A DNA stretch of 50,264 nucleotides, taken from IMG/VR virus record IMGVR_UViG_2925891887_000005. The stretch is one strand, 5' to 3'. The notes beneath the pieces are model-generated. The model was not told where the DNA came from, ran no database searches, and worked only from the letters and a program-made list of their open reading frames with translations. The DNA comes from a virus (taxonomy: Duplodnaviria > Heunggongvirae > Uroviricota > Caudoviricetes). Positions 1 to 50,225 of the stretch are shown here, piece after piece. The position numbers and the translations under genes were made by a program. The stretch's first letter is position 1; each line of letters begins with the position of its first letter.

Positions 1-1749
1 ATGACAGTGGCAAATTATAATTCTCTTGTCCAGAAAACTTTCTGCGAAAATGCAATTCGTTCCGTTGTCATGATTGATGACGATTTTCTGACGTATTCTG
101 AATCAATCAGGGCGTTGAATAACGAAGTTGATTTAGACTACAACAAAATTGACTCATCTAAACGAGCCGCTACTCTTGAGAGCTTTTTTCAATCTAAAAA
201 TATGATTTGTGATGTTGACAATGGTTCTGTTAATTTCGATGTGGATCGGATTAGAAAATCAGATCTTATTATTGTAGATTATCATCTTGATAATAATGCA
301 CCTGATAAAACACTTAAACTATTACAAGATTTGAAAGACTCCGATCATTTAAATATGATTGTAATATATACTAGAGAGAATTTAGAAACGGTTTGGATGC
401 AGATATCATCGACTCTCAAAGGTGCTCTGGATATCAACAGCTTGATCATTGACTACGATAATGAAGATGTCCAAAGTTATTGGGAAGACGTTGTATTACC
501 GAACTTAAATGATAATGGTAATAAAGCTCTCACAAGAGATGAAACAATAGCCTATATTAAAGACAGTAAGCCTTGTAGAAGAATTAAAAGATTAATACAT
601 GATGATGCTGTGTTGGAGGATCAAAAGGATAAAAACTTCATTGCAAAAATGATTGCAGAATATGCTGTGTCTAGAAATGCAATTATTTCTAGCAACACAT
701 CTGGCAATGTCATTCGGGGTGATGAAAGCGGAGTAAAATGGATTCAATGTGGTAATATCTTTGTCTCCCTATTTCATAAGGTTCAAGATGATCATGAAAA
801 CGATGGAGATAGGATTTGGCAAACTCTCAATGATTCTCTCATTGAATGGAAACCATCTTATTATCAGTTAATAAAATCTGAAATTCAGAATGCAATCGAA
901 GCTGAGGCTTTATCTTTTGTAAATCATTTGGCTAACGATCATTACGGTCAAGCTGCGTGGTTAAATGAGATATTAAAATCAGACTCGCCAGATATTAGAT
1001 GTAGAAATATTGACTTTGTATTTGGTAATTTATCAGAAGAGCTTTATCAAAGACTTAAAAATAATAATACGCTGGATGAATTTATCAAAAGTGTTTTTGA
1101 TAGCTATTCAAATGAATACGCTAACAGCGGAGTTGCTGCATTGCTCCAATATTGCTCTTCAAAAATGGATCTGCCATCAAATAATGATACTTATCACGAA
1201 ATGTATCATGCTTTAAATATGAATTTGTCTTCAAAGAATTTTGAAGATGGTCATATTTCTACTGGCACTATTTTCTTTGATACAGAGTCGAACAAATGGT
1301 ATTTATGTGTATCTGCGGCATGTGATTTGGTTCCTACTCAGGGTAACGACCCTCACCATGTAAGATTAAGTCCGCACAGGCTCATTAAAGTTCTGGAGCT
1401 TTTTAACGCCAGTCAGAGTAAAGCATTGCCATTTGCTGAACATTCGAAATATATATATGTAATGCATAAAAATCAAAGAAAATATCTCTCTATTTTCGAA
1501 GGGGATAAAACGCTTCCTGTTGTTGATTATATGGTGGTGTTGAATCATGGAACAACAGTTGATGGCGAAGAAAAAAATATTATTTCTGCCGTGTTTTTAA
1601 GTAATATGGATGGCAACGTGCAAAATGTTCCTGTCCGACTCAAACTTAAATCTCAACTGAGAACTGGTTATGCAGAAAGATATCAGGCTATAGCGTCTCA
1701 GTATAGCTCAAGGATTGGTGTGGATTATGTATCAATGATGCTACCATAA
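1..1749 (+). CDS. Hypothetical 582-aa protein with a CheY-like receiver (REC)-like N-terminus and a large uncharacterised C-terminal region
   Basis: Long ORF starting with ATG exactly at window position 1, so upstream context is unseen. N-terminal pattern VVMIDDDF ... DLIIVDYHLDNN ... MIVIYTRE fits the beta1 acidic pair, beta3 Asp and beta4 Thr of receiver domains. Visibly AT-rich compared with the phage core. Confidence 0.6.
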   Translation: MTVANYNSLVQKTFCENAIRSVVMIDDDFLTYSESIRALNNEVDLDYNKIDSSKRAATLESFFQSKNMICDVDNGSVNFDVDRIRKSDLIIVDYHLDNNAPDKTLKLLQDLKDSDHLNMIVIYTRENLETVWMQISSTLKGALDINSLIIDYDNEDVQSYWEDVVLPNLNDNGNKALTRDETIAYIKDSKPCRRIKRLIHDDAVLEDQKDKNFIAKMIAEYAVSRNAIISSNTSGNVIRGDESGVKWIQCGNIFVSLFHKVQDDHENDGDRIWQTLNDSLIEWKPSYYQLIKSEIQNAIEAEALSFVNHLANDHYGQAAWLNEILKSDSPDIRCRNIDFVFGNLSEELYQRLKNNNTLDEFIKSVFDSYSNEYANSGVAALLQYCSSKMDLPSNNDTYHEMYHALNMNLSSKNFEDGHISTGTIFFDTESNKWYLCVSAACDLVPTQGNDPHHVRLSPHRLIKVLELFNASQSKALPFAEHSKYIYVMHKNQRKYLSIFEGDKTLPVVDYMVVLNHGTTVDGEEKNIISAVFLSNMDGNVQNVPVRLKLKSQLRTGYAERYQAIASQYSSRIGVDYVSMMLP

Positions 1750-1820
1750 TTATTATATTTTAGGCGTGGTGATTTTTTTTCGCCATGCCTATTTTATATT
1801 TATCATCACAATGATGTTGT

Positions 1821-2237
1821 TTATTTTTGTTTAAGTCTTCTAAGCTTCATGCATTCTAATGAGAATAATAATAGAGTTGTGCTGTATATAAAGCCAGAGT
1901 TAGTTAATAACTTTAAATTTAATGCTTCAGGATTTTCACTGAGAAAGTGAAAGGCATAAACTAAGTATACAGCTAAAGTAGCCGTTCCAATTGTTGGTCC
2001 AATATCGCCTTGATCATGAGGTTCAAGGTTTACATTGAACTTGAAGATTAGCCATTCAAATCCCCAAGTAAAAAAAACAACTAATATCATGGCTGCGAAT
2101 AATTTCGCGATGTTATCTGCTGATGGATTCATCAGAACAGATTGTTTCTGAAAAAATTCACAAAGTGAGAGTCCGAAAAAAATAAAAAAAAGTGGTCTGG
2201 AACTAAATTTTTCAAAAACTTTGAATAGGGTTTCCAT
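1821..2237 (-). CDS. Small integral membrane protein (about 4 predicted TM helices), function unknown
   Basis: 138-aa ORF with four hydrophobic stretches (LFFIFFGLSL, AAMILVVFFTWGFEWLIF, TIGTATLAVYLVYAFHFL, GFIYSTTLLLFSL). AT-rich. Convergent with the 1-1749 ORF and directly downstream of the P4-like integrase. Confidence 0.5.
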   Translation of the reverse strand: METLFKVFEKFSSRPLFFIFFGLSLCEFFQKQSVLMNPSADNIAKLFAAMILVVFFTWGFEWLIFKFNVNLEPHDQGDIGPTIGTATLAVYLVYAFHFLSENPEALNLKLLTNSGFIYSTTLLLFSLECMKLRRLKQK

Positions 2238-2275
2238 TTTCTTTACCTTCAGGATTATATTAGCTATTCTGATAC

Positions 2276-3505
2276 TTAGGCTACCAGAGCATTTGATCTT
2301 TGAGCTTGAACGTAATCACTCCACCATTGCATCAAACTCTGTCGCTCTATCAGATATTCTGCACGATTGTATGCTGCGATAATTTCATCTTTTTTCGAGT
2401 GGGCAAGCGCTGCCTCAAGAACTTCAGCTCTGAATTTACCAGACTCCTCTGCCGCTGTTCGTGCAATAGAACGCATACCGTGAGCTACAAGCTCGCCTCC
2501 GAACCCCATTCGGATGATAGCTGCGTTGGCTGTTTGTTCATGCATATGATTAAGAGGCGCTTTTATGCTGGGGAAAACCCATTCTCTATGCCCACTTATT
2601 GATTTCATTAATTCAAGGATGCGCAAAGCTTCTTTACTCAAAGGAACTTTGTGAAGCTTTTTCATTTTCATGAAATCAGCAGGAATGTTCCAAATGCTGT
2701 TGGTTGTATCAATATCAGACCACCTTGCGCGAACGGCTTCACCCGGACGAACCCATGTCAACAATTGCCATTCAATTAGCATACGTGTTTCCAACCGGAT
2801 TGACGCATTCGTCAAAGATTCCATAAACCTTGGCAATTCGCTTGGGGGAAGGGCAGGCATATTTTGCTTTTTTGGTTTACTGAATCTTTGACCAAGGTTG
2901 TCAGCCGGGTTGAACTCAATAAGTTCTTCAGTAGCTGCCCACCGGAAGATTTCATTCAGACGTGAAATGATACGGCGTAGAGTTTCCAATACGCCTCGTT
3001 GCTCAATAGGATCAAGGTGTTGTTTTAAGAGCTTAGGTCGGATCTCATTGATAGGGACATTACCCAGACCGGGAAAGACATTTCTCTCTAAGCTGCGCCA
3101 GATGTCTGCTGCATGGTCTTGTGAGATACCTGATGTCTTTACCTTCTCATCTAACCATTTCCGCGCTACGGCTTGGAGAGTGTGCTCAGTAGCACTCTTT
3201 AATGCCTTCGCCTTATCGTTGTTATGGATTTGGGGATCAACACCATTTGCCAGAAAGGAGAGATATTCATCACGTAAGGCTCTGGCTCTTGCAAGGGTAA
3301 GGTGAGGATATGTCCCAAGGCTCATTTTGGTTCTTTTCTTGCTCACTGGTACTGCATACCTGAAATACCAATTTTTCTTGCCTCCTTTCGCCAAAGGAGC
3401 GATTCGTAGAATCAGACCATCACCGTCAAACAAGTTGATTTCTTTATCGGCTGGCTTGGTACTTTTGATTTCAGTGTCAGTGAGCTTCTTAGCGATTTTT
3501 GCCAT
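2276..3505 (-). CDS. int: P4-family tyrosine integrase (N-terminal DUF4102-type arm domain)
   Basis: N-terminus KKLTDTEIKSTKPADKEINLFDGDGLILRIAP...WYFRY is the signature of CP4-57/P4-type integrases; C-terminal catalytic region present. Start chosen at internal MAKIAKK (the track ORF extends to 3547). Lies beside the ssrA 3'-end remnant. Confidence 0.85.
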   Translation of the reverse strand: MAKIAKKLTDTEIKSTKPADKEINLFDGDGLILRIAPLAKGGKKNWYFRYAVPVSKKRTKMSLGTYPHLTLARARALRDEYLSFLANGVDPQIHNNDKAKALKSATEHTLQAVARKWLDEKVKTSGISQDHAADIWRSLERNVFPGLGNVPINEIRPKLLKQHLDPIEQRGVLETLRRIISRLNEIFRWAATEELIEFNPADNLGQRFSKPKKQNMPALPPSELPRFMESLTNASIRLETRMLIEWQLLTWVRPGEAVRARWSDIDTTNSIWNIPADFMKMKKLHKVPLSKEALRILELMKSISGHREWVFPSIKAPLNHMHEQTANAAIIRMGFGGELVAHGMRSIARTAAEESGKFRAEVLEAALAHSKKDEIIAAYNRAEYLIERQSLMQWWSDYVQAQRSNALVA

Positions 3506-3670
3506 TTTGGGACCCTCGGTTTTTGGACCCTTCTTAGTGGGTCCCATTCAGGGTGCCATAACTCGTAGTTCTCAGCAATTCTCACTGGACGACAATAGAC
3601 GTAAAAAAGCCCGCAGAGCTTGTGCTGTGTGGGCTTAGTAGACTTCATTGAACTTCAAACAACTAAAAAG

Positions 3671-3700
3671 TGGTGGAGCTGGCGGGAGTTGAACCCGCGT
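3671..3700. repeat. 30-bp direct repeat of the ssrA 3' end (attachment-site core; left prophage boundary)
   Basis: tggtggagctggcgggagttgaacccgcgt at 3671-3700 is identical to 49863-49892, the 3' terminus of intact ssrA; flanking sequence diverges on both sides. Confidence 0.85.
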
Positions 3701-3841
3701 ATGATTGAATTTATGTGTATGAAAAATAAAGTTTAATTTCTTCCTGCAATCTTTGCGTATCAAAAACGTGCACTTCGTCATTATTTTATAGTAATTTATT
3801 TTGCTCATTTTTGACTAGACAGATTTGGCTGAGGTGTCGCC

Positions 3842-4765
3842 ATGGAACTGTTGATTTCCCCAAAAAGATTGTGCCTTTATAATGATTCTGATCGCCGTGT
3901 TACAGCTAAGTTTTTGAACTCAGTTGATAACACCCTTGCGAGAGCATCTGGACAAGTGGTTATAGACTTTTCGACAGTAGAATATGCAGGTGCTGCAGCT
4001 AGCGTAAGGTTGTTTGCTATCATCAGTAGGGCTTATTTTATGGCATTCGGCACAAGTAGTCTTCGATTTATTTGGCCGAAAAAAGAAAATAATCCGTATG
4101 GGCATCGATATATTGTTGGGACGGGGTTATCGATTGCTCTAATGGCAAATACAGTTGATAAATTAGATGTTCTTACTAAGGAACGCAGGTACTTTCAGTC
4201 TGCTGTGGAACCGTATGAACATTGGGCTAAAACGATGGAATTTATTGATTCAAAAGCAATTCTCACATTTGAGCAATATCTTTTGGTCTCCTCAGCCCTT
4301 AGTGAGGCAATGCTGAATGTTTCATATCATGCATATGAACATCCAGACTTTGCTGGTGCTACAGAGCATATGCAAGGGAAACGATGGTGGCAGAGTTGTT
4401 GGTACAACCCTGACACAGACAAGGTTGTCTTTATTATTTATGATCTTGGGCTTGGCATACATAAATCATTTACTTCAGCCTCTCCGTTGTTTACTGGGTA
4501 TGACGACGTGACATCTGTGTCAACAGCCCTGACAGGAGGACAGTCCAGATATGTTAACGCTGGACGTGGTAATGGTTCTGAGGATATAAAGAGACCTATA
4601 GGGTCTGGCTGTGCGAATTCAGAATCACTTTTGGTGTTCACAGGGAATGTTAAGTACAGCTATAATTCAAGAAATGAGGTTCCCAAATGCGAGTGGATAC
4701 CTGAGTACATGCCGGGAACATTGATTGAATGGTCATTAGTTCCGAGGAGAGGAGAAGATGGTTAA
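3842..4765 (+). CDS. GHKL-type (histidine-kinase-like) ATPase-domain protein, possibly with an N-terminal STAS-like segment
   Basis: N-box-like SEAMLNVSYHAYEH, G1-like IIYDLGLGI and G2-like GRGNGS...IGSG motifs in the C-terminal half. N-terminal VVIDFSTVEYAGAAASVRLF resembles STAS-like folds. GAGG ribosome-binding site 8 nt upstream of the ATG. Confidence 0.6.
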   Translation: MELLISPKRLCLYNDSDRRVTAKFLNSVDNTLARASGQVVIDFSTVEYAGAAASVRLFAIISRAYFMAFGTSSLRFIWPKKENNPYGHRYIVGTGLSIALMANTVDKLDVLTKERRYFQSAVEPYEHWAKTMEFIDSKAILTFEQYLLVSSALSEAMLNVSYHAYEHPDFAGATEHMQGKRWWQSCWYNPDTDKVVFIIYDLGLGIHKSFTSASPLFTGYDDVTSVSTALTGGQSRYVNAGRGNGSEDIKRPIGSGCANSESLLVFTGNVKYSYNSRNEVPKCEWIPEYMPGTLIEWSLVPRRGEDG

Positions 4766-5099
4766 CATCGTCATAGCAAGGGATTTCTCAAAGATGCCAT
4801 TTGGAAGGTTCAAGTCTGACAGCCCGAACAGTGCTGAGCGTTTTCGTAAGGACTTTCTGGTTCCTGCATTAAAATCTGGTGAGCGTGAGGTTGTCGTAGA
4901 TTTTACGGGTATAAATCATGGGATTGGTTCTTCGTTTCTAGAGGAGGCCTTTGGAGGGCTTGTTAGGAAGGAAGGTGTACCTAAGGCTGACATTAAGGCA
5001 AAACTAATTATAAAAAGTGATTTGCCGTTCTATAAAGATCAAATTTTTAGATATATTGAAATGGCTAATCCAGAAAGGAAGCCTTTCCAAAGGAGTTGA
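4758..5099 (+). CDS. STAS-like (DUF4325-like) small protein, putative partner of the upstream GHKL ATPase
   Basis: 113 aa. Motif VVVDFTGINHGIGSSFLEEAFGGL matches the conserved core I recall for STAS-like/DUF4325 domains. ATG overlaps the upstream stop (translational coupling) and follows a GAGGAGAGGAG ribosome-binding site. Confidence 0.55.
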   Translation: MVNIVIARDFSKMPFGRFKSDSPNSAERFRKDFLVPALKSGEREVVVDFTGINHGIGSSFLEEAFGGLVRKEGVPKADIKAKLIIKSDLPFYKDQIFRYIEMANPERKPFQRS

Positions 5100-5100
5100 T

Positions 5101-5730
5101 TTGAACACCGTTGATATTAAGGACACCCTTGCAGGGGTGTCCACTTACGCATGGATGTTTAGTGTTGTGAGTATTATCTTAGTGTTTATTGGATGGTTTG
5201 TTACTTACAATAATTCACTGAAGATTGCTACTCGCTCTGAATCTAAATCGATTATAGATGCGATTGCTAAAATTTTAAACGAAATATCGGATTTGTCTCT
5301 GGATTACTGGGTTAATAAGTCAACACCACCAGATTCTAATCCATTTAAGAAAAAAAGTTTTAAGAACTCTAATGGATTGCATACTCAGTCGGCGAAAATA
5401 TATTTAACGGCAATTCATGGAAAAGCCATACAAATAAATAAATACATTAATCTTCTCGATGAGAGGGGGATAAAAATAACAATTTCGTATTTTTCTAATA
5501 TTATAGATGAAGCTACTATGGAATGTGAGAAATCATATTGTTTTAATAAGTCATATAGGGTTTTTCGCGCTCAGAATGTATCTAGTGCTTGTATCGATTT
5601 CATAATGCATTTATATGATTCTTTTCAAAAAAATCATCCTCCACGTAAGCCTGTATATGTATTGAAAACATTAAAACAATTGGATTGTTACTTGGATAAA
5701 TGGCATAATGAATTATGTGGGCGGCAATAA
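5101..5730 (+). CDS. Membrane-anchored protein (single N-terminal TM helix plus about 170-aa soluble domain), function unknown
   Basis: Track ORF is 5017-5730. AAGGAG sits 5 nt before an in-frame TTG at 5101, immediately after the upstream stop; alternative starts are ATG 5017 or ATG 5155. TM segment YAWMFSVVSIILVFIGWFVTY. Very AT-rich. Confidence 0.5.
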   Translation: MNTVDIKDTLAGVSTYAWMFSVVSIILVFIGWFVTYNNSLKIATRSESKSIIDAIAKILNEISDLSLDYWVNKSTPPDSNPFKKKSFKNSNGLHTQSAKIYLTAIHGKAIQINKYINLLDERGIKITISYFSNIIDEATMECEKSYCFNKSYRVFRAQNVSSACIDFIMHLYDSFQKNHPPRKPVYVLKTLKQLDCYLDKWHNELCGRQ

Positions 5731-5742
5731 ATGCCGCCATAA

Positions 5743-6909
5743 TCATTGTATAATGTATTTGATGGAGCTTTTTCCGTCGTATTCTTTGAGATATCGACCA
5801 TAGTGCCTGAAAAGCATCTCCGGCCCTTTATGCCCCATTTGAGCTGCAAGCCAAAACAGGTTTGCTCCTCGGCTGATATGGCTGGTGGCGAATGTATGCC
5901 TGGTTTGATATGGGTTTCTGTAACGAATACCTGCTTTTCGCAATGTTGGCACCCATGCTTTTTTCCTAATTGCATCAGCACTTGCCCAAGGCTTATTGGT
6001 CTTTGGATCTTCAAAGACAGTAGTATCCTTCATGAATGTAAATGGCTTCTGATTTATCAGCGCCAACATTGCCTCTTCTGTCAGTTCAACTTTCCGAGTA
6101 CCTGCTTTTGTCTTTGTCCCTTTGATAACACCGACAACACTTGCGCTCTGGACATAGGCAGTTTTTCCAACAAAGTCGATATCACGCCATCGAAGGGCAC
6201 ATAATTCAGAACTACGCAGGCCTGTATGTATAGCGAACCGGAACAGATTTTCCCATTGTTTGTTTCCGGCTGCTGCTAGTAATGCATCAACTTCTGCTGG
6301 TGATAGCGGATCAACTACGTAGCTGCTTTCTGCTTCTGACTTATCACTTTGGTAGCGCGAAGCTGTTACTAACGATACGGGGTTAATTTGAAGTACCCCA
6401 TCGGTCACGGCTTCATCAAGTGCTGACCGCAGGAAAGATAACTGGTTGCGAATTGTTTTTAAGGTCGTTTTCTGATTTTGAATCCACGCTTTCAGGGTTG
6501 CTGGTGTTAATTCACTTGCAGGGCAAATGTGAAGTGAGGCTAACGCACTACGGCATTTTTTATAGCCACCAATCGTAGAGGGTGAAAGTTTTCTTGTTTC
6601 GCAGATTTCAAGATATTCGTCCAGGTACATCTTTACCGTTTTGCCTGCAGCAGCATTACCAAAAATTTTCAAACGAGCAGAACGGGGAAAATATTCTGCA
6701 TAAATGAATGTTCCCCTTTCGATCTTATTATGGATTTCGCCGAGTGTACGCTCGGCGTATTTAATGTTCTTTGGTGTTACTTCCAGATTGGAAAGCGGCT
6801 CACGACATCTAACTCCTTTGTAGGTGAAAGTTATATTGATCGTTTCTCCCTGGCGGTGTTTCCTGATTGTTACGCCGCGCGGTAGTTTGAGCAGTTTTGT
6901 CTGGCCCAT
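5743..6909 (-). CDS. int: Prophage tyrosine integrase (lambda-type, arm-binding N-terminus)
   Basis: 388 aa with a catalytic C-terminus (R...HxxR...Y pattern: RHTFATS, LFRHYGRY) and an N-terminal arm-type domain. Immediately downstream of xis in the leftward operon. Confidence 0.9.
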   Translation of the reverse strand: MGQTKLLKLPRGVTIRKHRQGETINITFTYKGVRCREPLSNLEVTPKNIKYAERTLGEIHNKIERGTFIYAEYFPRSARLKIFGNAAAGKTVKMYLDEYLEICETRKLSPSTIGGYKKCRSALASLHICPASELTPATLKAWIQNQKTTLKTIRNQLSFLRSALDEAVTDGVLQINPVSLVTASRYQSDKSEAESSYVVDPLSPAEVDALLAAAGNKQWENLFRFAIHTGLRSSELCALRWRDIDFVGKTAYVQSASVVGVIKGTKTKAGTRKVELTEEAMLALINQKPFTFMKDTTVFEDPKTNKPWASADAIRKKAWVPTLRKAGIRYRNPYQTRHTFATSHISRGANLFWLAAQMGHKGPEMLFRHYGRYLKEYDGKSSIKYIIQ

Positions 6910-7117: not shown

Positions 7118-8008
7118 TTAACGAATAGTGTCGTTACTTTGAAGTACAGCAAATGCCATTAATACTTCTAAAGTATATCTTCTATAAAATTTAACAAAAC
7201 CAACATAGAAAACATAGACGAAGAAAAAGCTAAGCATTATTGAAAGTAAACTATAAAGATAATCACTATGAGTACATAATCGATAAATAAAGGTTGGAAC
7301 TGATACCCAAAATGAAATTATAAAGATTAAACATATGTTTCTGCAAAAACCATATAATGCAACATAGTTTTGAATTTTTGTTTGATGTTGTTTTGAAAAC
7401 TCATAAACATAATGATATGCCAATCTGAAGAGATCATCATCAAGTCCGTTTTTATCTTGTAATAATTGGCGATTTGTTATGAACTTTTTCTCATAACCTT
7501 CTTTGATCATTAACCATGTTGTATTAGCTAAATGAAATGGTAGAGATTGAGAATAACATAGTTTTTGTGTTATAAAATCCCATAGTATTATTGGGCATAA
7601 TACGCATTTGATTATGCGATTCTTTATTTTTGTTTTTTTATCAGCGCTTCTCTCATCGCATGATGGGCTACAAATGCTTTCTGAGGTATCTATCAATTTT
7701 TTAAATAGATATTTGGAAGGATATCCTAATTCTTTATTCATGTGTTTTTCGATAAAAAATGCTGACGTGATAGAAATAAAATGTCCAGCTATATAAGATA
7801 TAATAACTATTGAAGCGTAGTTCAAAATGCCAAAGATTTGACTTTGACCTCTGAGCAATTCACTTAAGTCAATAACAATATCTAGATCGAATGTCAAACC
7901 ACAGAAATACATTAATAGGATAAAAAAACCACCTGGTATTAAATATCCAAGAAAGTCATAGAATGAGAATGGATTTTGATTCATTGTTGCTCTCCAATAA
8001 TTGTTCAA
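7118..8008 (-). CDS. Polytopic membrane protein, unknown function (moron in the early-left operon)
   Basis: 296 aa with at least four hydrophobic helices at the N- and C-termini; extremely AT-rich, contrasting with flanking phage genes. Confidence 0.5.
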   Translation of the reverse strand: MNNYWRATMNQNPFSFYDFLGYLIPGGFFILLMYFCGLTFDLDIVIDLSELLRGQSQIFGILNYASIVIISYIAGHFISITSAFFIEKHMNKELGYPSKYLFKKLIDTSESICSPSCDERSADKKTKIKNRIIKCVLCPIILWDFITQKLCYSQSLPFHLANTTWLMIKEGYEKKFITNRQLLQDKNGLDDDLFRLAYHYVYEFSKQHQTKIQNYVALYGFCRNICLIFIISFWVSVPTFIYRLCTHSDYLYSLLSIMLSFFFVYVFYVGFVKFYRRYTLEVLMAFAVLQSNDTIR

Positions 8009-18250: not shown

Positions 18251-18697
18251 TTAAGGTTTTAATTCATCAAGACGTTGTTGGATAGTGTTTTTGCTTGCGT
18301 TGTCTGTTATAGCCATTTGTTGTACTTGCCCCATTGCCATTTGAGTTTCCATCCACATATCGGCCCACACTTTTGTATCGTTATTAACTTGAGCGATAGT
18401 AAATCTGACTTTTGATACCGGGGTTGTTGAATAGGCATTTCCGATTAACATTTGTCCAAAAACAGCAGAGCCGCCTTCCAGTTCTTTACCACATATAACA
18501 CTGCTGTTATCCGCTTTGTAAATTATCAACCCTCTACTATTGCAGTAATTCACAAGGGCATCTTTGACTTTATCTTTTGTCGTATTTTGATAAACCCCCT
18601 CAGGTTTTCCTGATTGAGTTTTCTTTATCAATGGTACGGAAGAAGTACAACCTGAAATGATAGTTGCGCTAAGTAATAGTACAGTCATTTTATTCAT
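18251..18697 (-). CDS. Lipoprotein (moron), function unknown
   Basis: Signal peptide with lipobox IISGC; AT-rich; antisense to the surrounding late operon. Confidence 0.6.
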   Translation of the reverse strand: MNKMTVLLLSATIISGCTSSVPLIKKTQSGKPEGVYQNTTKDKVKDALVNYCNSRGLIIYKADNSSVICGKELEGGSAVFGQMLIGNAYSTTPVSKVRFTIAQVNNDTKVWADMWMETQMAMGQVQQMAITDNASKNTIQQRLDELKP

Positions 18698-45771: not shown

Positions 45772-46590
<819 letters not shown>

Positions 46591-46951
46591 TCATTGCAAG
46601 GGCTCACAACCAGTAGTGTTGAGAAAACCATCGGAGAAATGAGGCTAAGCCTTTGAATTTACATAGTACAAAAAAGATACTTTTCCTCATAATGTGAGCT
46701 AATTTTATGTTTCGTTTGATGATTGGACCGGTCTCGAAAACCGTAGACACATAGTATGCGTTAATTTATGAACAAACTACTTGTCTGCTGTTTTTCTGTC
46801 ATTAGTCGTATATAGAATGATTCTCTATGCCTAACAAAGCATCACCAGTGCTAGATTACGTTGTAGTCACTGTTTAAATATCCAGATAAAACATTTCCTT
46901 CTGGGTTGAATGAGTGATAAAGTTTCACCCATTAGACCCCTTGGAGGAATT

Positions 46952-48385
46952 ATGTCTGAATTTGAAGTGTTGGCACAGCATCTGCTGAAGGAAGCCGAGG
47001 CGGAAGAAAAGCTGCGACAGGAAAATGATAAAAAGCTTATCGAGAAAGTGCTGGAAATCTATGATCAGAAGTATGTGGCTGAATTACTGAGAAAAGTCGG
47101 AAAAAATGAGTGGAGCCGTGAAACCATTAACCGCTGGATTAATGGCAAGTGTTTACCAAAATCGTTGACTTCAGTAGAAGAGTCTCTTCTGCGTAAGATG
47201 CTACCAGAACCACCTGCAAACCATCCGGAATATGCTTTCCGCTTCATTGACTTATTTGCTGGAATTGGAGGGATACGGAAAGGTTTTGAGGCCATTGGAG
47301 GCCAGTGTGTTTTTACCAGTGAATGGAATAAAGATGCTGTGCGTACATACAAGGCCAACTGGTTTAACGATGAACAGGTGCATAAATTCAATCTCGATAT
47401 TCGGGAAGTCACGCTGAGTGATAAAACCGATGTATTGGAAACGGATGCTTATGCATATATTGATGAGCATGTGCCGGATCATGATGTGCTTCTTGCGGGG
47501 TTCCCGTGCCAGCCATTTAGCCTTGCTGGTGTTAGTAAGAAAAACTCACTTGGTCGTGCGCATGGTTTTGAATGTGAAGCACAAGGAACACTTTTTTTTG
47601 ACGTGGCACGTATTATACGAGCAAAAAAACCGGCAATTTTTGTGCTGGAAAATGTCAAAAATCTGAAGAGCCATGATAAGGGTAAAACTTTCAAAGTCAT
47701 TATGGAGACCCTTGACGAGCTGGGCTACGAAGTTGCCGATGCTGCAGAAATGGGAAAAAACGATCCAAAGATTATCGATGGGAAGCATTTTTTGCCTCAG
47801 CATCGTGAACGCATTGTTCTGGTCGGATTTAGACGAGATCTGAATATTCACAAGGGGTTTACCTTGCGTGATATCAGTCGTTTTTATCCGGAACACCGCC
47901 CATCATTTGGTGAATTGCTGGAGCCTGTAGTCGACAGTAAATATATACTTACGCCAAAACTATGGGAGTACCTTTATAACTACGCCAAAAAGCATGCAGC
48001 CAAGGGGAATGGTTTTGGCTTTGGGTTGGTCAATCCTGAGAATAAGGAAAGCATTGCACGCACACTTTCTGCCAGATATCACAAAGACGGATCAGAAATT
48101 CTTATTGATCGTGGTTGGGATATGGCAACGGGAGAGGCTGACTTTATGAATGAGAGTAATCAGGCTCGTCGACCACGCAGGCTGACTCCCCGAGAGTGCG
48201 CACGCCTTATGGGATTTGAAAAACCTGGAGGGAAACCATTCCGTATTCCGGTTTCAGATACTCAGTCATATCGGCAGTTCGGTAACTCAGTTGTGGTGCC
48301 AGTATTTGAAGCTGTTGCCAGACTTCTGGAACCCTATATCCTCAAAGCTGTTTCTGCTGATGCTGGTAAGACTGGGCAGCCTTGA
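46952..48385 (+). CDS. dcm: C5-cytosine DNA methyltransferase, Dcm / M.EcoRII-like (CCWGG)
   Basis: [17 protein letters not shown] (motif I), GFPCQPFS (motif IV), ENV (motif VI), QFGNSV; near-identical to Dcm/M.EcoRII as recalled. Start at MSEFE with a GGAGG ribosome-binding site; the track ORF starts at 46910. Confidence 0.9.
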
Positions 48386-48391
48386 GAACAT

Positions 48392-48414
48392 CTCCCGGCC
48401 TTTTAAGCCGGGAG
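48392..48414. terminator. Hairpin between the convergent methyltransferase and endonuclease genes
   Basis: CTCCCGGCcttttaaGCCGGGAG inverted repeat. Confidence 0.4.
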
Positions 48415-48419
48415 TCAGC

Positions 48420-49634
48420 CTATGATAGTTCAGCGTAAAGCTCTATCAGCTCAGTAATGAATGCTCCGAGCGTTATTAATTCTTCTCTAACTGCTTCTGG
48501 GTATTTTTTATGTAAAGTTGATGGTACAACGAGTCTGACACCCGCATCTTTCATTTCTCGGTATTGTGCTGAAGAAACACCTTCTTGCAGTGTAAATAAA
48601 TGTACCTGATGGATTTTATCTGCTTCATTCAGTATCTGACGCCAGCGATCTTTGCAGGTGGTCTTTACTGCCAGCATACGTAAGTTTTCTACAGGAAATT
48701 CAACGTTATGATATGCCTCTGCTGAAGGAAACAGGAAATCTGGTTTTTTATTACCTTCAGTAACTGCCTGAGTGGAGAAATGCCGTAGTCCGTGCTCGAT
48801 AAAAAGCTTCTCTAGGTGAAGTTCAAGTGATTTGCCTGCCCTTGATTTACGTCGATTACTGACAGAGTTGGCTAATGCAATAAACTCATCTACAGAATCG
48901 AATCCTTTCTTAATAATATCAAGAACATGTAATTCCTCGACGAGTAGAAAAATATCATACTCGACACGCCGACGGTCAATCAGTTGCTCATCTGGATCCT
49001 TGGAGTTTTTAGCATAATGGCCAGCAGCATATTGAATAATTTCGTTTCCAGAAGGAAAACGCTTCTTCCAGTCTTCAGGAATAACATATTTATGATTTAC
49101 TGGAGTTTGCTGAAGAGACAATCCGCCCAAAATTTGTCCGGCAGGGCCGGAAATTAGGGTTCCAGGTATGATTTCGCCAATAGCAGACTCGATGATATCC
49201 TCTTCATCGGGATTGACGCAGACCCATATATCTACCTCGGAACAGTCAGTGTTCTGTTCGTTTAACCTGAAAGCAAGAATTGTGAGGGCTCCTGTATTTT
49301 CAGGGTTCTGTAATGGACTTCCTCTCCCCCAGCGCGTAATTCTTTTTTCGTTTCGGGTCTTACCAAAATAACGGTTGTTGTAATAAATTGCGCGTGCTTG
49401 GGTATCAGGGCAATCATGGGATGATACATGCGCAGTAAGGAAGACTGAAGGGTTCAGTTCGCGAGTATGATTGATAGATGGAAAAAGCTTTTCAACGATA
49501 TTTGAGGGGATATAAAGTCCGACCTGATGGCCACCTGTTGCGCCTGTGTCGTTTGCAGAAAGGCGTTTGATGTAGATAAAGTAATTCCCGCTTGCGATAT
49601 CAAGCAGCCAGTTATGAAAAACCGACATATACAT
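48420..49634 (-). CDS. ecoRIIR: Type IIE restriction endonuclease, EcoRII-like
   Basis: 404 aa; N-terminus SVFHNWLL...YIKRLSANDTGATGGHQVGLYIP matches the EcoRII effector domain as recalled; convergent with the methyltransferase. Confidence 0.85.
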   Translation of the reverse strand: MYMSVFHNWLLDIASGNYFIYIKRLSANDTGATGGHQVGLYIPSNIVEKLFPSINHTRELNPSVFLTAHVSSHDCPDTQARAIYYNNRYFGKTRNEKRITRWGRGSPLQNPENTGALTILAFRLNEQNTDCSEVDIWVCVNPDEEDIIESAIGEIIPGTLISGPAGQILGGLSLQQTPVNHKYVIPEDWKKRFPSGNEIIQYAAGHYAKNSKDPDEQLIDRRRVEYDIFLLVEELHVLDIIKKGFDSVDEFIALANSVSNRRKSRAGKSLELHLEKLFIEHGLRHFSTQAVTEGNKKPDFLFPSAEAYHNVEFPVENLRMLAVKTTCKDRWRQILNEADKIHQVHLFTLQEGVSSAQYREMKDAGVRLVVPSTLHKKYPEAVREELITLGAFITELIELYAELS

Positions 49635-49862: not shown

Positions 49863-49892
49863 TGGTGGAGCTGGCGGGAGTTGAACCCGCGT
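49863..49892. repeat. attR core: 3' end of ssrA, identical to the repeat at 3671-3700
   Basis: Exact 30-bp identity with 3671-3700. Confidence 0.85.
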
Positions 49893-50225
49893 CCGAAATT
49901 CCTACATCCTCGGTACTACATGCTTAGTCAGTCTTTACATTCGCTTGCCAACTGCGGACGGACACGCCACTAACAAACTAGCCTGATTAAGTTTTAACGC
50001 TTCAACCCCAGGCAGGGCTTCCACGCGATCTCTTTTGGGTTTGACCTCTCTTGATCCCCGTCCTAAGAGCGGAGGCTAGGGAGAGAGGGCTCTAAGCAGG
50101 TTATTAAGCTGCTAAAGCGTAGTTTTCGTCGTTTGCGACTATTTTTTGCGGCTTTTTACGAGGCCAACCGCCCCTCGGCATGCACCTTGGGTTTCGCAAA
50201 TCCCGTCGAATCCAGAATCAGCCCC
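49863..50225 (-). ncRNA. ssrA: tmRNA (SsrA), complete 363-nt gene
   Basis: Reverse complement reads GGGGCTGATTCTGGATTCGACGGG ... tag ORF GCAAACGACGAAAACTACGCTTTAGCAGCTTAA (ANDENYALAA) ... GGTTCAACTCCCGCCAGCTCCACCA; a TATACT -10 element lies just upstream at about 50240. Confidence 0.95.

Follow-up and report, generated by a model that had tools for sequence, protein, structure and literature searches.

The 50,264-nucleotide stretch of DNA analyzed here (IMG/VR virus record IMGVR_UViG_2925891887_000005, Caudoviricetes; hereafter the window, with positions counted from its first letter) carries three consecutive genes, designated g1, g2 and g3, beside a prophage integrase gene. The host DNA in the window is that of Escherichia coli and includes the ssrA transfer-messenger RNA (tmRNA) gene. 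The last 30 bases of ssrA are repeated exactly at 3671-3700, and therefore a prophage of ~46 kb occupies about positions 3701 to 49862. In 1730 complete E. coli genomes, positions 3600 to 3700 correspond to the normal sequence beside ssrA; the whole region from 3600 to 5800, by contrast, was found in only 10 of 5426 E. coli genomes. The features that define the locus are the following.

3671-3700: att repeat, 30 bp, identical to the 3' end of ssrA (49863-49892); distal boundary of the prophage
3842-4765 (+): g1, 307 aa, open reading frame (ORF) called identically in RefSeq
4758-5099 (+): g2, 113 aa, ORF called identically in RefSeq
5101-5730 (+): g3, 209 aa, TTG start, ORF called identically in RefSeq
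5743-6909 (-): prophage tyrosine integrase (Arm-DNA-bind_2 and Phage_integrase domains), convergent with g3; context, outside the trio
49863-50225 (-): ssrA tmRNA gene, located with ARAGORN

An earlier note, made from the letters of the window, had described three tightly packed, co-directional genes between an att repeat and int, and the ORF junctions bear this out. The g1 and g2 frames overlap by 8 nt, the ATG of g2 (4758) preceding the TAA of g1 (4763-4765) within ATGGTTAA. One base separates the TGA of g2 (5097-5099) from the TTG of g3 (5101), such that the third gene does begin right behind the second as proposed, with TTG and not ATG as its start codon. The expected AAGGAG ribosome-binding site (5089-5094) lies six bases upstream of that TTG, and Shine-Dalgarno sequences are also present upstream of g1 (GAGG) and of g2 (GAGGAGAGGAG). 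The same three genes, including the TTG-5101 start, are annotated by RefSeq in E. coli strain CFSAN064035, where g1 and g3 are labeled "hypothetical". A longer g3 ORF starting at GTG-5017 in the program-made list was set aside as it overlaps g2 and is unneeded. With 141 bp between the att repeat and g1 and 13 bp between g3 and the integrase gene, the trio does occupy the slot between repeat and int, the label "attL" being arbitrary. It is also AT-rich relative to the prophage core, as had been noted: the GC content is 41.8% for g1, 40.6% for g2, 32.4% for g3 and 38.5% for the operon, versus 50.9 to 52.8% (~51%) for the prophage body. Where g3 and int converge, a perfect 6-bp GC hairpin (GGCGGC-AATAAAT-GCCGCC, 5720-5738) spans the g3 stop codon; it was not called as a terminator because a T-tract is absent on both strands.

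A three-protein hidden Markov model (HMM) scan revealed g1-g2-g3, in one order and on one strand, in all 55 related loci in addition to the window, which amounts to 49 distinct trios. Of these 55 loci, 37 came from IMG/VR, nine from protein look-ups and eight from GTDB species genomes, and one is an E. coli reference (L001). They are distributed over Enterobacterales, Vibrio, Pseudoalteromonas, Colwellia and Oceanospirillaceae. The three proteins diverge in a correlated manner from locus to locus (Pearson coefficients for pairwise divergence of 0.89 for g1-g2, 0.84 for g1-g3 and 0.71 for g2-g3), and thus the three genes are inherited as a unit. Conservation of the neighborhood across homologous loci, which had been proposed as a check, was accordingly found, with the trio order kept in 49 of 49 distinct loci, most of them prophage-borne.

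The AlphaFold2 model of g1 has a predicted local distance difference test score (pLDDT) of 89.9 and a predicted template modeling score of 0.90. According to this model, g1 is a two-domain protein, with an N-terminal STAS-like domain followed by, and packed onto, a SpoIIAB-type GHKL serine-kinase domain; it is the candidate sensor serine kinase, the "K" of the trio. Its elements map as follows.

3842-4216 (+): N-terminal STAS-like domain, residues 1 to ~125, beta-alpha-beta-alpha in the AlphaFold2 secondary structure; aligns with the STAS part of VapK (see below)
4304-4333 (+): N box, E155-x3-N159-x3-H163-A164 (E155-AMLN159-VSY-H163-A164; the Asn is the Mg-ATP ligand)
4442-4456 (+): G1 box, D201-L-G203-L-G205
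4565-4579 (+): G2-like box, R242-G-N-G-S246, in the ATP-lid loop

In a Foldseek search of the PDB, the C-terminal half of g1 superposed on SpoIIAB (1tid_C and 1l0o_A, target template modeling [TM] score of 0.70, probability of 1.0), and further matches were to Hsp90/Grp94, GyrB and Topo VI-B. Because SpoIIAB ranks first and other GHKL ATPases follow, the model establishes a Bergerat fold for g1 and indicates the anti-sigma serine kinases as its subtype. On its own, the g1 sequence gave borderline matches (Pfam HATPase_c_2, E of 0.028; NCBIfam SpoIIAB, E of 0.055). HATPase_c_2 was matched by 57 of 59 g1 homologues, with a best E value of 1.9e-5, such that the Bergerat-fold motifs read by eye in the earlier note hold up at the levels of both fold and family. 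g1 also matches PHROG 3364, and a homologue search among 5.8 billion proteins yielded 149 clusters of ~300 aa, from Gammaproteobacteria. Across 49 distinct g1 homologues, E155, N159, H163, A164, D201, G203, R242, G243, G245 and S246 are invariant, as are G292 and T293, which form the G3 box; for G205 and N244, conservation reaches at least 90%. The invariance of the key residues in the four boxes argues for g1 being an active enzyme, its kinase activity being a prediction from sequence. Residues 238 to 243 have pLDDT values below 50, which fits a mobile lid.

The N-terminal domain of g1 is STAS-like in the model, and weak STAS or STAS_2 matches were found in 10 of the 59 homologues. The segment "VVIDFSTVEYAGAAAS" shows the STAS beta3-alpha2 pattern (signature "VVIDFSTV..AAAS"). 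Where phosphorylatable serines would stand, this domain has invariant alanines, A51 and A53. Alignment of the domain with the g2 family using hhalign was weak (E of 0.005).

g2 matches the Pfam family DUF4325 (PF14213, "STAS-like") with an E value of 8e-15, as its earlier assignment to STAS-like/DUF4325 proteins would have it. It is the candidate kinase substrate and antitoxin, i.e., the "S" of the trio. At 61%, its mean pairwise identity is the highest in the trio; members of its family are 104 to 118 aa long, and they have no conserved tail. Residues S11, P14-F15-G16-R17, D21, F29-R30, D48, S58-S59-F60, E62-E63, G66-G67-L68 and R70 are invariant across the 49 distinct trios. They include a putative site of phosphorylation.

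4929-4934 (+): codons of g2 Ser58-Ser59 (TCT TCG), which would accept the phosphate at the N-terminal end of STAS helix alpha2; invariant in 49 of 49

In the 441-aa PHROG 5816, the C-terminal 100 residues are matched by g2 and, weakly, the middle by g1. These matches suggest that fused, single-chain GHKL–DUF4325 versions exist in phages.

The candidate effector is g3, which is predicted to cross the membrane once, N-out/C-in, and to carry a four-helix bundle in the cytoplasm. Its single-pass nature, already proposed, is backed by hydropathy, by the AlphaFold2 model and by the count of positive charges.

5149-5211 (+): transmembrane helix of g3, residues ~17 to 37, Kyte-Doolittle hydropathy of 2.19, the sole strongly hydrophobic segment; modeled as a helix

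The model (pLDDT of 80) is all-alpha, with a long helix from residue 17 to 73 followed by the four-helix bundle. Lys and Arg residues number 3.65 on average after the hydrophobic helix versus 0.74 before it, with more after than before in 45 of 46 homologues. This concentration of positive charges indicates an N-out/C-in topology with the bundle on the cytoplasmic side, and the soluble domain of g3 could therefore meet g1 and g2. A conserved motif is found next to the membrane (G31-W32...A-T-R45-S-E47-S-K49..D53..K57..E61), in which R45, K49, D53, K57 and E61, spaced every four residues, form a charged stripe on the juxtamembrane helix. Three residues, W32, R45 and E47, are invariant; at least 90% of homologues also share G31, T44, K49, D53, K57, W70, R122, E143 and P181. 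A Pfam search of g3 and 17 homologues returned no family and no PIN match. PADLOC detected a weak similarity of g3 to its generic "2TM effector" model (E of 0.007).

The trio appears to extend well beyond the loci described so far. A HMMER scan of 1.84 billion representative proteins with the g1 profile returned 2,584 proteins at E ≤ 1e-3, each standing for a cluster at 50% identity, with 1,378 at E ≤ 1e-10 and 106 at E ≤ 1e-30; most were matched end to end. The order of the trio was kept in all five distant relatives that were sampled (g1 E values from 1e-55 to 1e-25). In each of them, the kinase gene is followed by a DUF4325 gene, with the motif GSSFLEE.FGGLVR in four and a diverged PDSAFLGGSF in the fifth (L062). 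The third gene codes in all five for a protein of 143 to 186 aa with an N-terminal hydrophobic helix, and the g3 HMM detects three of these proteins.

The genomic settings are those of cargo. In 30 of the 55 related loci, in addition to the window, a convergent integrase gene of one of two tyrosine-integrase families either overlaps the end of g3 or lies within 69 bp downstream of it. The Yersinia trio sits among tail genes, and type I restriction–modification (R-M) genes precede the trio in locus L061. In Pseudoalteromonas and Colwellia, the trio forms a small insertion among housekeeping genes. The family is rare, with trios found in 37 IMG/VR contigs versus 8 of 100,044 species genomes. The trio is overwhelmingly prophage-borne, beside integrases, CI-type repressors or R-M genes. 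In three loci, it is located directly downstream of, and co-oriented with, a gene for a CI-type repressor (helix-turn-helix [HTH] and Peptidase_S24 domains).

L017, 7288-7938: CI-type repressor gene upstream of the trio
L059, 661-1332: CI-type repressor gene upstream of the trio
L063, 387-1076: CI-type repressor gene upstream of the trio

The position immediately downstream of cI is that of rexAB in phage lambda. By analogy, the rexAB-like position behind a CI-type repressor suggests that the trio is expressed in the lysogen. None of the Pfam-annotated neighbors in 11 looked-up contexts is a PP2C phosphatase, which fits a one-way switch like VapKSC. Neither the operon nor its conserved neighborhood contains a sigma factor gene, a single unrelated extracytoplasmic function (ECF) sigma factor being encoded upstream in Pseudoalteromonas only.

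The opposite, ssrA-proximal end of the prophage (45772-49634) holds known defense cargo, in agreement with the earlier view of the trio as cargo of a prophage accessory slot for defense genes.

45772-46545 (-): PD-T4-3, GIY-YIG protein (PADLOC match, E of 6e-139)
46910-48385 (+): C5 cytosine methylase of an EcoRII-type R-M system
48420-49634 (-): EcoRII endonuclease of the same EcoRII-type R-M system

The closest characterized relative of the trio is the vapKSC operon reported by Chambers, Rani, Min, Villa and Corbett (EMBO J 2026), which codes for the VapK kinase (STAS-GHKL), the STAS antitoxin VapS, phosphorylated on Ser48, and the PIN toxin VapC, and which protects against phage Bas42 by about 2 logs (PMC13373217). 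In size, order and coupling the two operons are alike, with 307, 113 and 209 aa for g1, g2 and g3 and 297, 116 and 203 aa for E. coli VapK, VapS and VapC. Both kinases are proteins of ~300 aa with STAS and GHKL domains and no HTH; furthermore, E. coli vapKSC is likewise found at a prophage edge and likewise lacks a phosphatase. We compared the proteins using the VapK and VapS sequences of the appendix of that paper, the VapK alignment consisting of 30 members from 833 clusters. The g1 family aligned with VapK over 268 columns covering residues 1 to 302 (hhalign probability of 86.8%, E of 4.2e-6), an alignment in which all four boxes (N, G1, G2 and G3) coincide and the g1 N box falls on E-IY-N-SFEHS of VapK. 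VapS and g2 share the DUF4325 family (E values of 2.7e-17 and 8e-15, respectively). Searched against the whole PDB, the g2-family profile found VapS (9z7o_A) as its best match, RsbS coming next and weakly, and a direct hhalign comparison of g2 with VapS gave an E value of 1.3e-4. Every g2/VapS alignment places VapS Ser48 on g2 Ser58. Phosphorylation has been validated at VapS S48 and at S54 of a second STAS protein, CapS (PMC13373217).

The operons part at the third gene. VapC is a PIN RNase; g3, which has no similarity to it, is predicted to span the membrane once and to contain a four-helix bundle. The idea that g3 might be a divergent PIN protein was rejected, as hhalign against VapC gave a probability of 0.1% and the model is all-alpha with a transmembrane helix. 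VapK contributed 3 weak blastp matches (E values from 1e-5 to 6e-4) to the top 150 relatives of g1. By sequence comparison, g1 is outside the VapK and CapK clades and forms a separate clade. The trio is thus best described, from these comparisons, as an uncharacterized sibling of VapKSC in which a membrane protein replaces the nuclease toxin; its effector is not that of VapKSC.

The CapK–CapS pair offers a second comparison. CapK (HTH-STAS-GHKL) is switched on by single-stranded DNA (ssDNA) and phosphorylates CapS (STAS-winged HTH) on Ser54, which leads to de-repression of immune operons (PMC13373217); the operons regulated in this manner are those of CBASS, Bub and Thoeris systems (PMC13373217). 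As in the trio, the kinase combines GHKL with an internal STAS domain, and its partner STAS protein carries a conserved Ser on helix alpha2. In the published sequences, the CapS motifs "PFG" and "DSSF" resemble "PFGR" and "GSSF" of g2, with CapS Ser53-Ser54 falling on g2 Ser58-Ser59, an alignment made by eye only. The profile match between g1 and CapK is marginal, and the N-terminal HTH of CapK and the C-terminal winged HTH of CapS are absent from g1 and g2. Organization differs as well: CapKS is located upstream of a multi-gene immune operon that it controls transcriptionally, CapS repressing the promoter, whereas here g3 alone follows, and then the convergent integrase gene. Local BLAST and HMM comparison ruled out that the nearest large relatives of g1, of 340 to 390 aa, are CapK proteins.

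The interpretation that we favor, with a probability of roughly 0.55, is that the lysogen expresses the cassette as a three-component kinase switch like those of CapK and VapK. Most likely, this switch would be a toxin–antitoxin or abortive-infection (exclusion) system that acts upon a trigger. We base it on the folds of the proteins, their catalytic and acceptor residues, the linkage and co-divergence of the genes, the topology of g3, the position of the trio as prophage cargo and the relatedness to VapK and VapS. In both VapKSC and CapK–CapS, the STAS protein is the substrate of the kinase and itself binds the toxin or the DNA (PMC13373217). In VapKSC, it is the unphosphorylated form that neutralizes the toxin. 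By analogy, g2 would bind the cytoplasmic four-helix bundle of g3 in the resting lysogen and keep g3, anchored in the inner membrane through its one N-terminal helix, inactive. g1 would detect a cue of infection or damage, possibly ssDNA as CapK and VapK do, and once triggered would phosphorylate g2 on Ser58 or Ser59. Phosphorylated g2 would then release g3, and free g3 might perturb the membrane by oligomerization, depolarization or pore formation, such that growth stops or the superinfecting phage is blocked. The contact between g2 and g3, the toxicity of g3, the trigger and the anti-phage phenotype are all modeled here on the characterized systems.

Several observations weigh against such a switch. 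The relationship to VapKSC is distant, VapK scoring only 15.9 bits against the g1 HMM and the g2 profile reaching VapS with an E value of only 0.023, and hhalign found no significant alignment between g2 and CapS. g2 ends ~20 residues earlier than VapS and lacks its C-terminal helix (residues 94 to 116), which reaches the active site of the toxin; the mode of inhibition therefore cannot match that of VapS. The g1 columns aligned to the aromatic residue that contacts ssDNA at the STAS/GHKL interface of VapK and CapK (candidates V20/F24, Y48 and F58) are only partly conserved, with an uncertain mapping: two hhalign runs gave differing registers in the N-terminal domain of g1, and the published numbering of VapK F54 and CapK W68 does not match the published sequence. 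A scan of the 141 bp upstream of g1 detected no sigma-70-like promoter. Finally, a tblastn search of 50,697 cultured phage records in INPHARED with g1 returned no match.

A wider interpretation, which we put forward tentatively and as less probable than the triggered switch, is that the trio represents a large unnamed family in which a phospho-STAS switch gates a new kind of membrane effector, or else that g3 is itself the sensor and reads a membrane-proximal infection event instead of ssDNA.

Classical partner switching would reverse the roles of the components. g1, acting like an anti-sigma factor, would sequester g3 or a host or phage protein, unphosphorylated g2 would compete for g1, and phosphorylation of g2 would be the off-switch. 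The SpoIIAB–SpoIIAA and RsbW–RsbV pairs do resemble the trio in the HATPase_c_2-type fold and boxes of the kinase, and in a substrate that consists of a single STAS domain with an acceptor Ser, and RsbS is among the weak PDB matches of the g2 profile. However, those modules come with a sigma factor and a PP2C phosphatase of the RsbU/SpoIIE type for resetting, neither of which was found in the loci examined, and g1 has a STAS-like domain of its own, unlike RsbW and SpoIIAB. The setting is also different, mobile prophage cargo as opposed to a chromosomal stress or sporulation regulon. In the nearest characterized systems, moreover, it is the STAS protein that binds the output and the kinase that serves as sensor (PMC13373217). 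Partner switching in its classical form is thus unlikely. Of the RsbW/RsbV-like architecture proposed in the earlier note, the kinase fold and the STAS partner stand; the additional STAS-like domain of g1 and the lack of PP2C and sigma factor genes do not conform to it, and CapK and VapK are closer.

It is equally improbable, in our estimation, that g3 is a non-toxic sensor or blocker, for instance of phage DNA entry, that is tied to g1 and g2 and confers superinfection exclusion or sensing at the membrane with a non-lethal output. Abortive-infection modules with membrane effectors include lambda RexAB and the CBASS systems with one- or two-transmembrane (1TM/2TM) effectors. The trio resembles these modules in combining a putative lysogen-expressed sensor with a small membrane protein, beside cI or int. 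It differs from them in its predicted chemistry, the Ser phosphorylation of a STAS protein, and no kinship in sequence or fold was established.

More doubtful still is a housekeeping role within the prophage, in which the switch would couple DNA damage to the phage life cycle, e.g., to the timing of lysis or to membrane permeabilization upon induction, and g3 would resemble a holin or an antiholin. CapK and VapK kinases respond to ssDNA derived from DNA damage (PMC13373217), which would suit such a role, as would the position of the trio near int/xis or cI and a sub-threshold match of the g3 transmembrane region to Phage_holin_6_1 (E of 0.12). That match is, however, far below the Pfam threshold and occurs in only 1 of 18 homologues. 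Phages with unrelated backbones carry the trio, whose neighbors there are integrases of two families, tail genes or cI, and it also occupies non-phage chromosomal sites in Pseudoalteromonas and Colwellia and has R-M neighbors. Its rarity in E. coli (the 10 genomes mentioned above) and its AT-richness are features of cargo and not of a phage core.

The notion that the three ORFs are unrelated neighbors or decaying remnants with fortuitous motif matches, to which the E value of 0.028 of g1 alone against HATPase_c_2 and the "hypothetical" labels of g1 and g3 in RefSeq might lend some color, is refuted by the intact trio in 49 distinct loci from several gammaproteobacterial orders, the invariant catalytic residues, the translational coupling, the co-divergence and the confident AlphaFold2 models.

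g1 and g2 had no match in PADLOC-DB v2.0.0, and no system model of that database fits the trio, which the earlier note could likewise match to no named defense system. Single-sequence searches of the PDB sequences with g1 and g2 gave nothing useful, and NCBIfam yielded no useful match; it took family profiles to reveal the relationships. In the reachable literature on DUF4325, on STAS and GHKL proteins in anti-phage defense, on the RefSeq accessions and on VapKSC, only the article of Chambers et al. was relevant (PMC13373217). The accessions of the trio were not found in the part of the DefensePredictor supplement that was examined. As far as could be searched, the version with a membrane protein is thus unnamed, being absent from Chambers et al. 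(PMC13373217), PADLOC v2 and the searchable literature. The description of the module as "undescribed" consequently holds for this version and no longer for the architecture as a whole, its sibling VapKSC having been named in 2026 (PMC13373217).

Other accessory regions were noted in the window. A second ssrA-linked island lies to the left of the att repeat (1-3547) and extends beyond the window (L001, 682-4150), with the following genes.

1-1749 (+): 582-aa Response_reg_2 (PF19192) protein
1821-2237 (-): 138-aa membrane ORF
2276-3547 (-): P4-type integrase

In CFSAN064035, a gene for a 572-aa kinase with HEF_HK and HATPase_c domains is found upstream of that of the Response_reg_2 protein. The DefensePredictor supplement lists both proteins (WP_000577254 and WP_000214990) under the label "Predicted novel defense gene", and PADLOC matched no system to the island. 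Inside the prophage, a 296-aa multi-pass membrane ORF (7118-8008, minus strand) forms a patch of 30% GC between an excisionase-like gene and yfdR. No Pfam family covers this ORF, and PADLOC matched it weakly to Csx27, a Cas13b-associated membrane protein (E of 2.8e-6). It may be another moron. In the late region, which is otherwise of ~52% GC, a 148-aa ORF on the opposite strand (18251-18697, minus strand) coincides with a dip to 38% GC and matched neither Pfam nor PADLOC.

Kinase–STAS immune switches were recognized in 2026 with two kinds of output, a transcriptional repressor and a PIN toxin, to which the trio would add a third, a small membrane protein. The branch that it represents is strictly conserved, is found in the prophage slots of lysogen exclusion genes, and may be very large, judging from the 2,584 kinase clusters. 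If our interpretation is true, this 1.9-kb cassette would be an example of effector swapping in bacterial immunity and would provide a new membrane effector, and it would open a way to learn whether ssDNA sensing is common to all CapK-like kinases. Many proteins of Enterobacterales prophages that are currently annotated as "hypothetical protein" or "STAS-like domain-containing protein" would turn into components of a recognizable system. Should the wider interpretation be the true one, in either of its forms, the trio would define a second and possibly commoner branch of CapK/VapK signaling, one whose output, and perhaps also its input, would be new.

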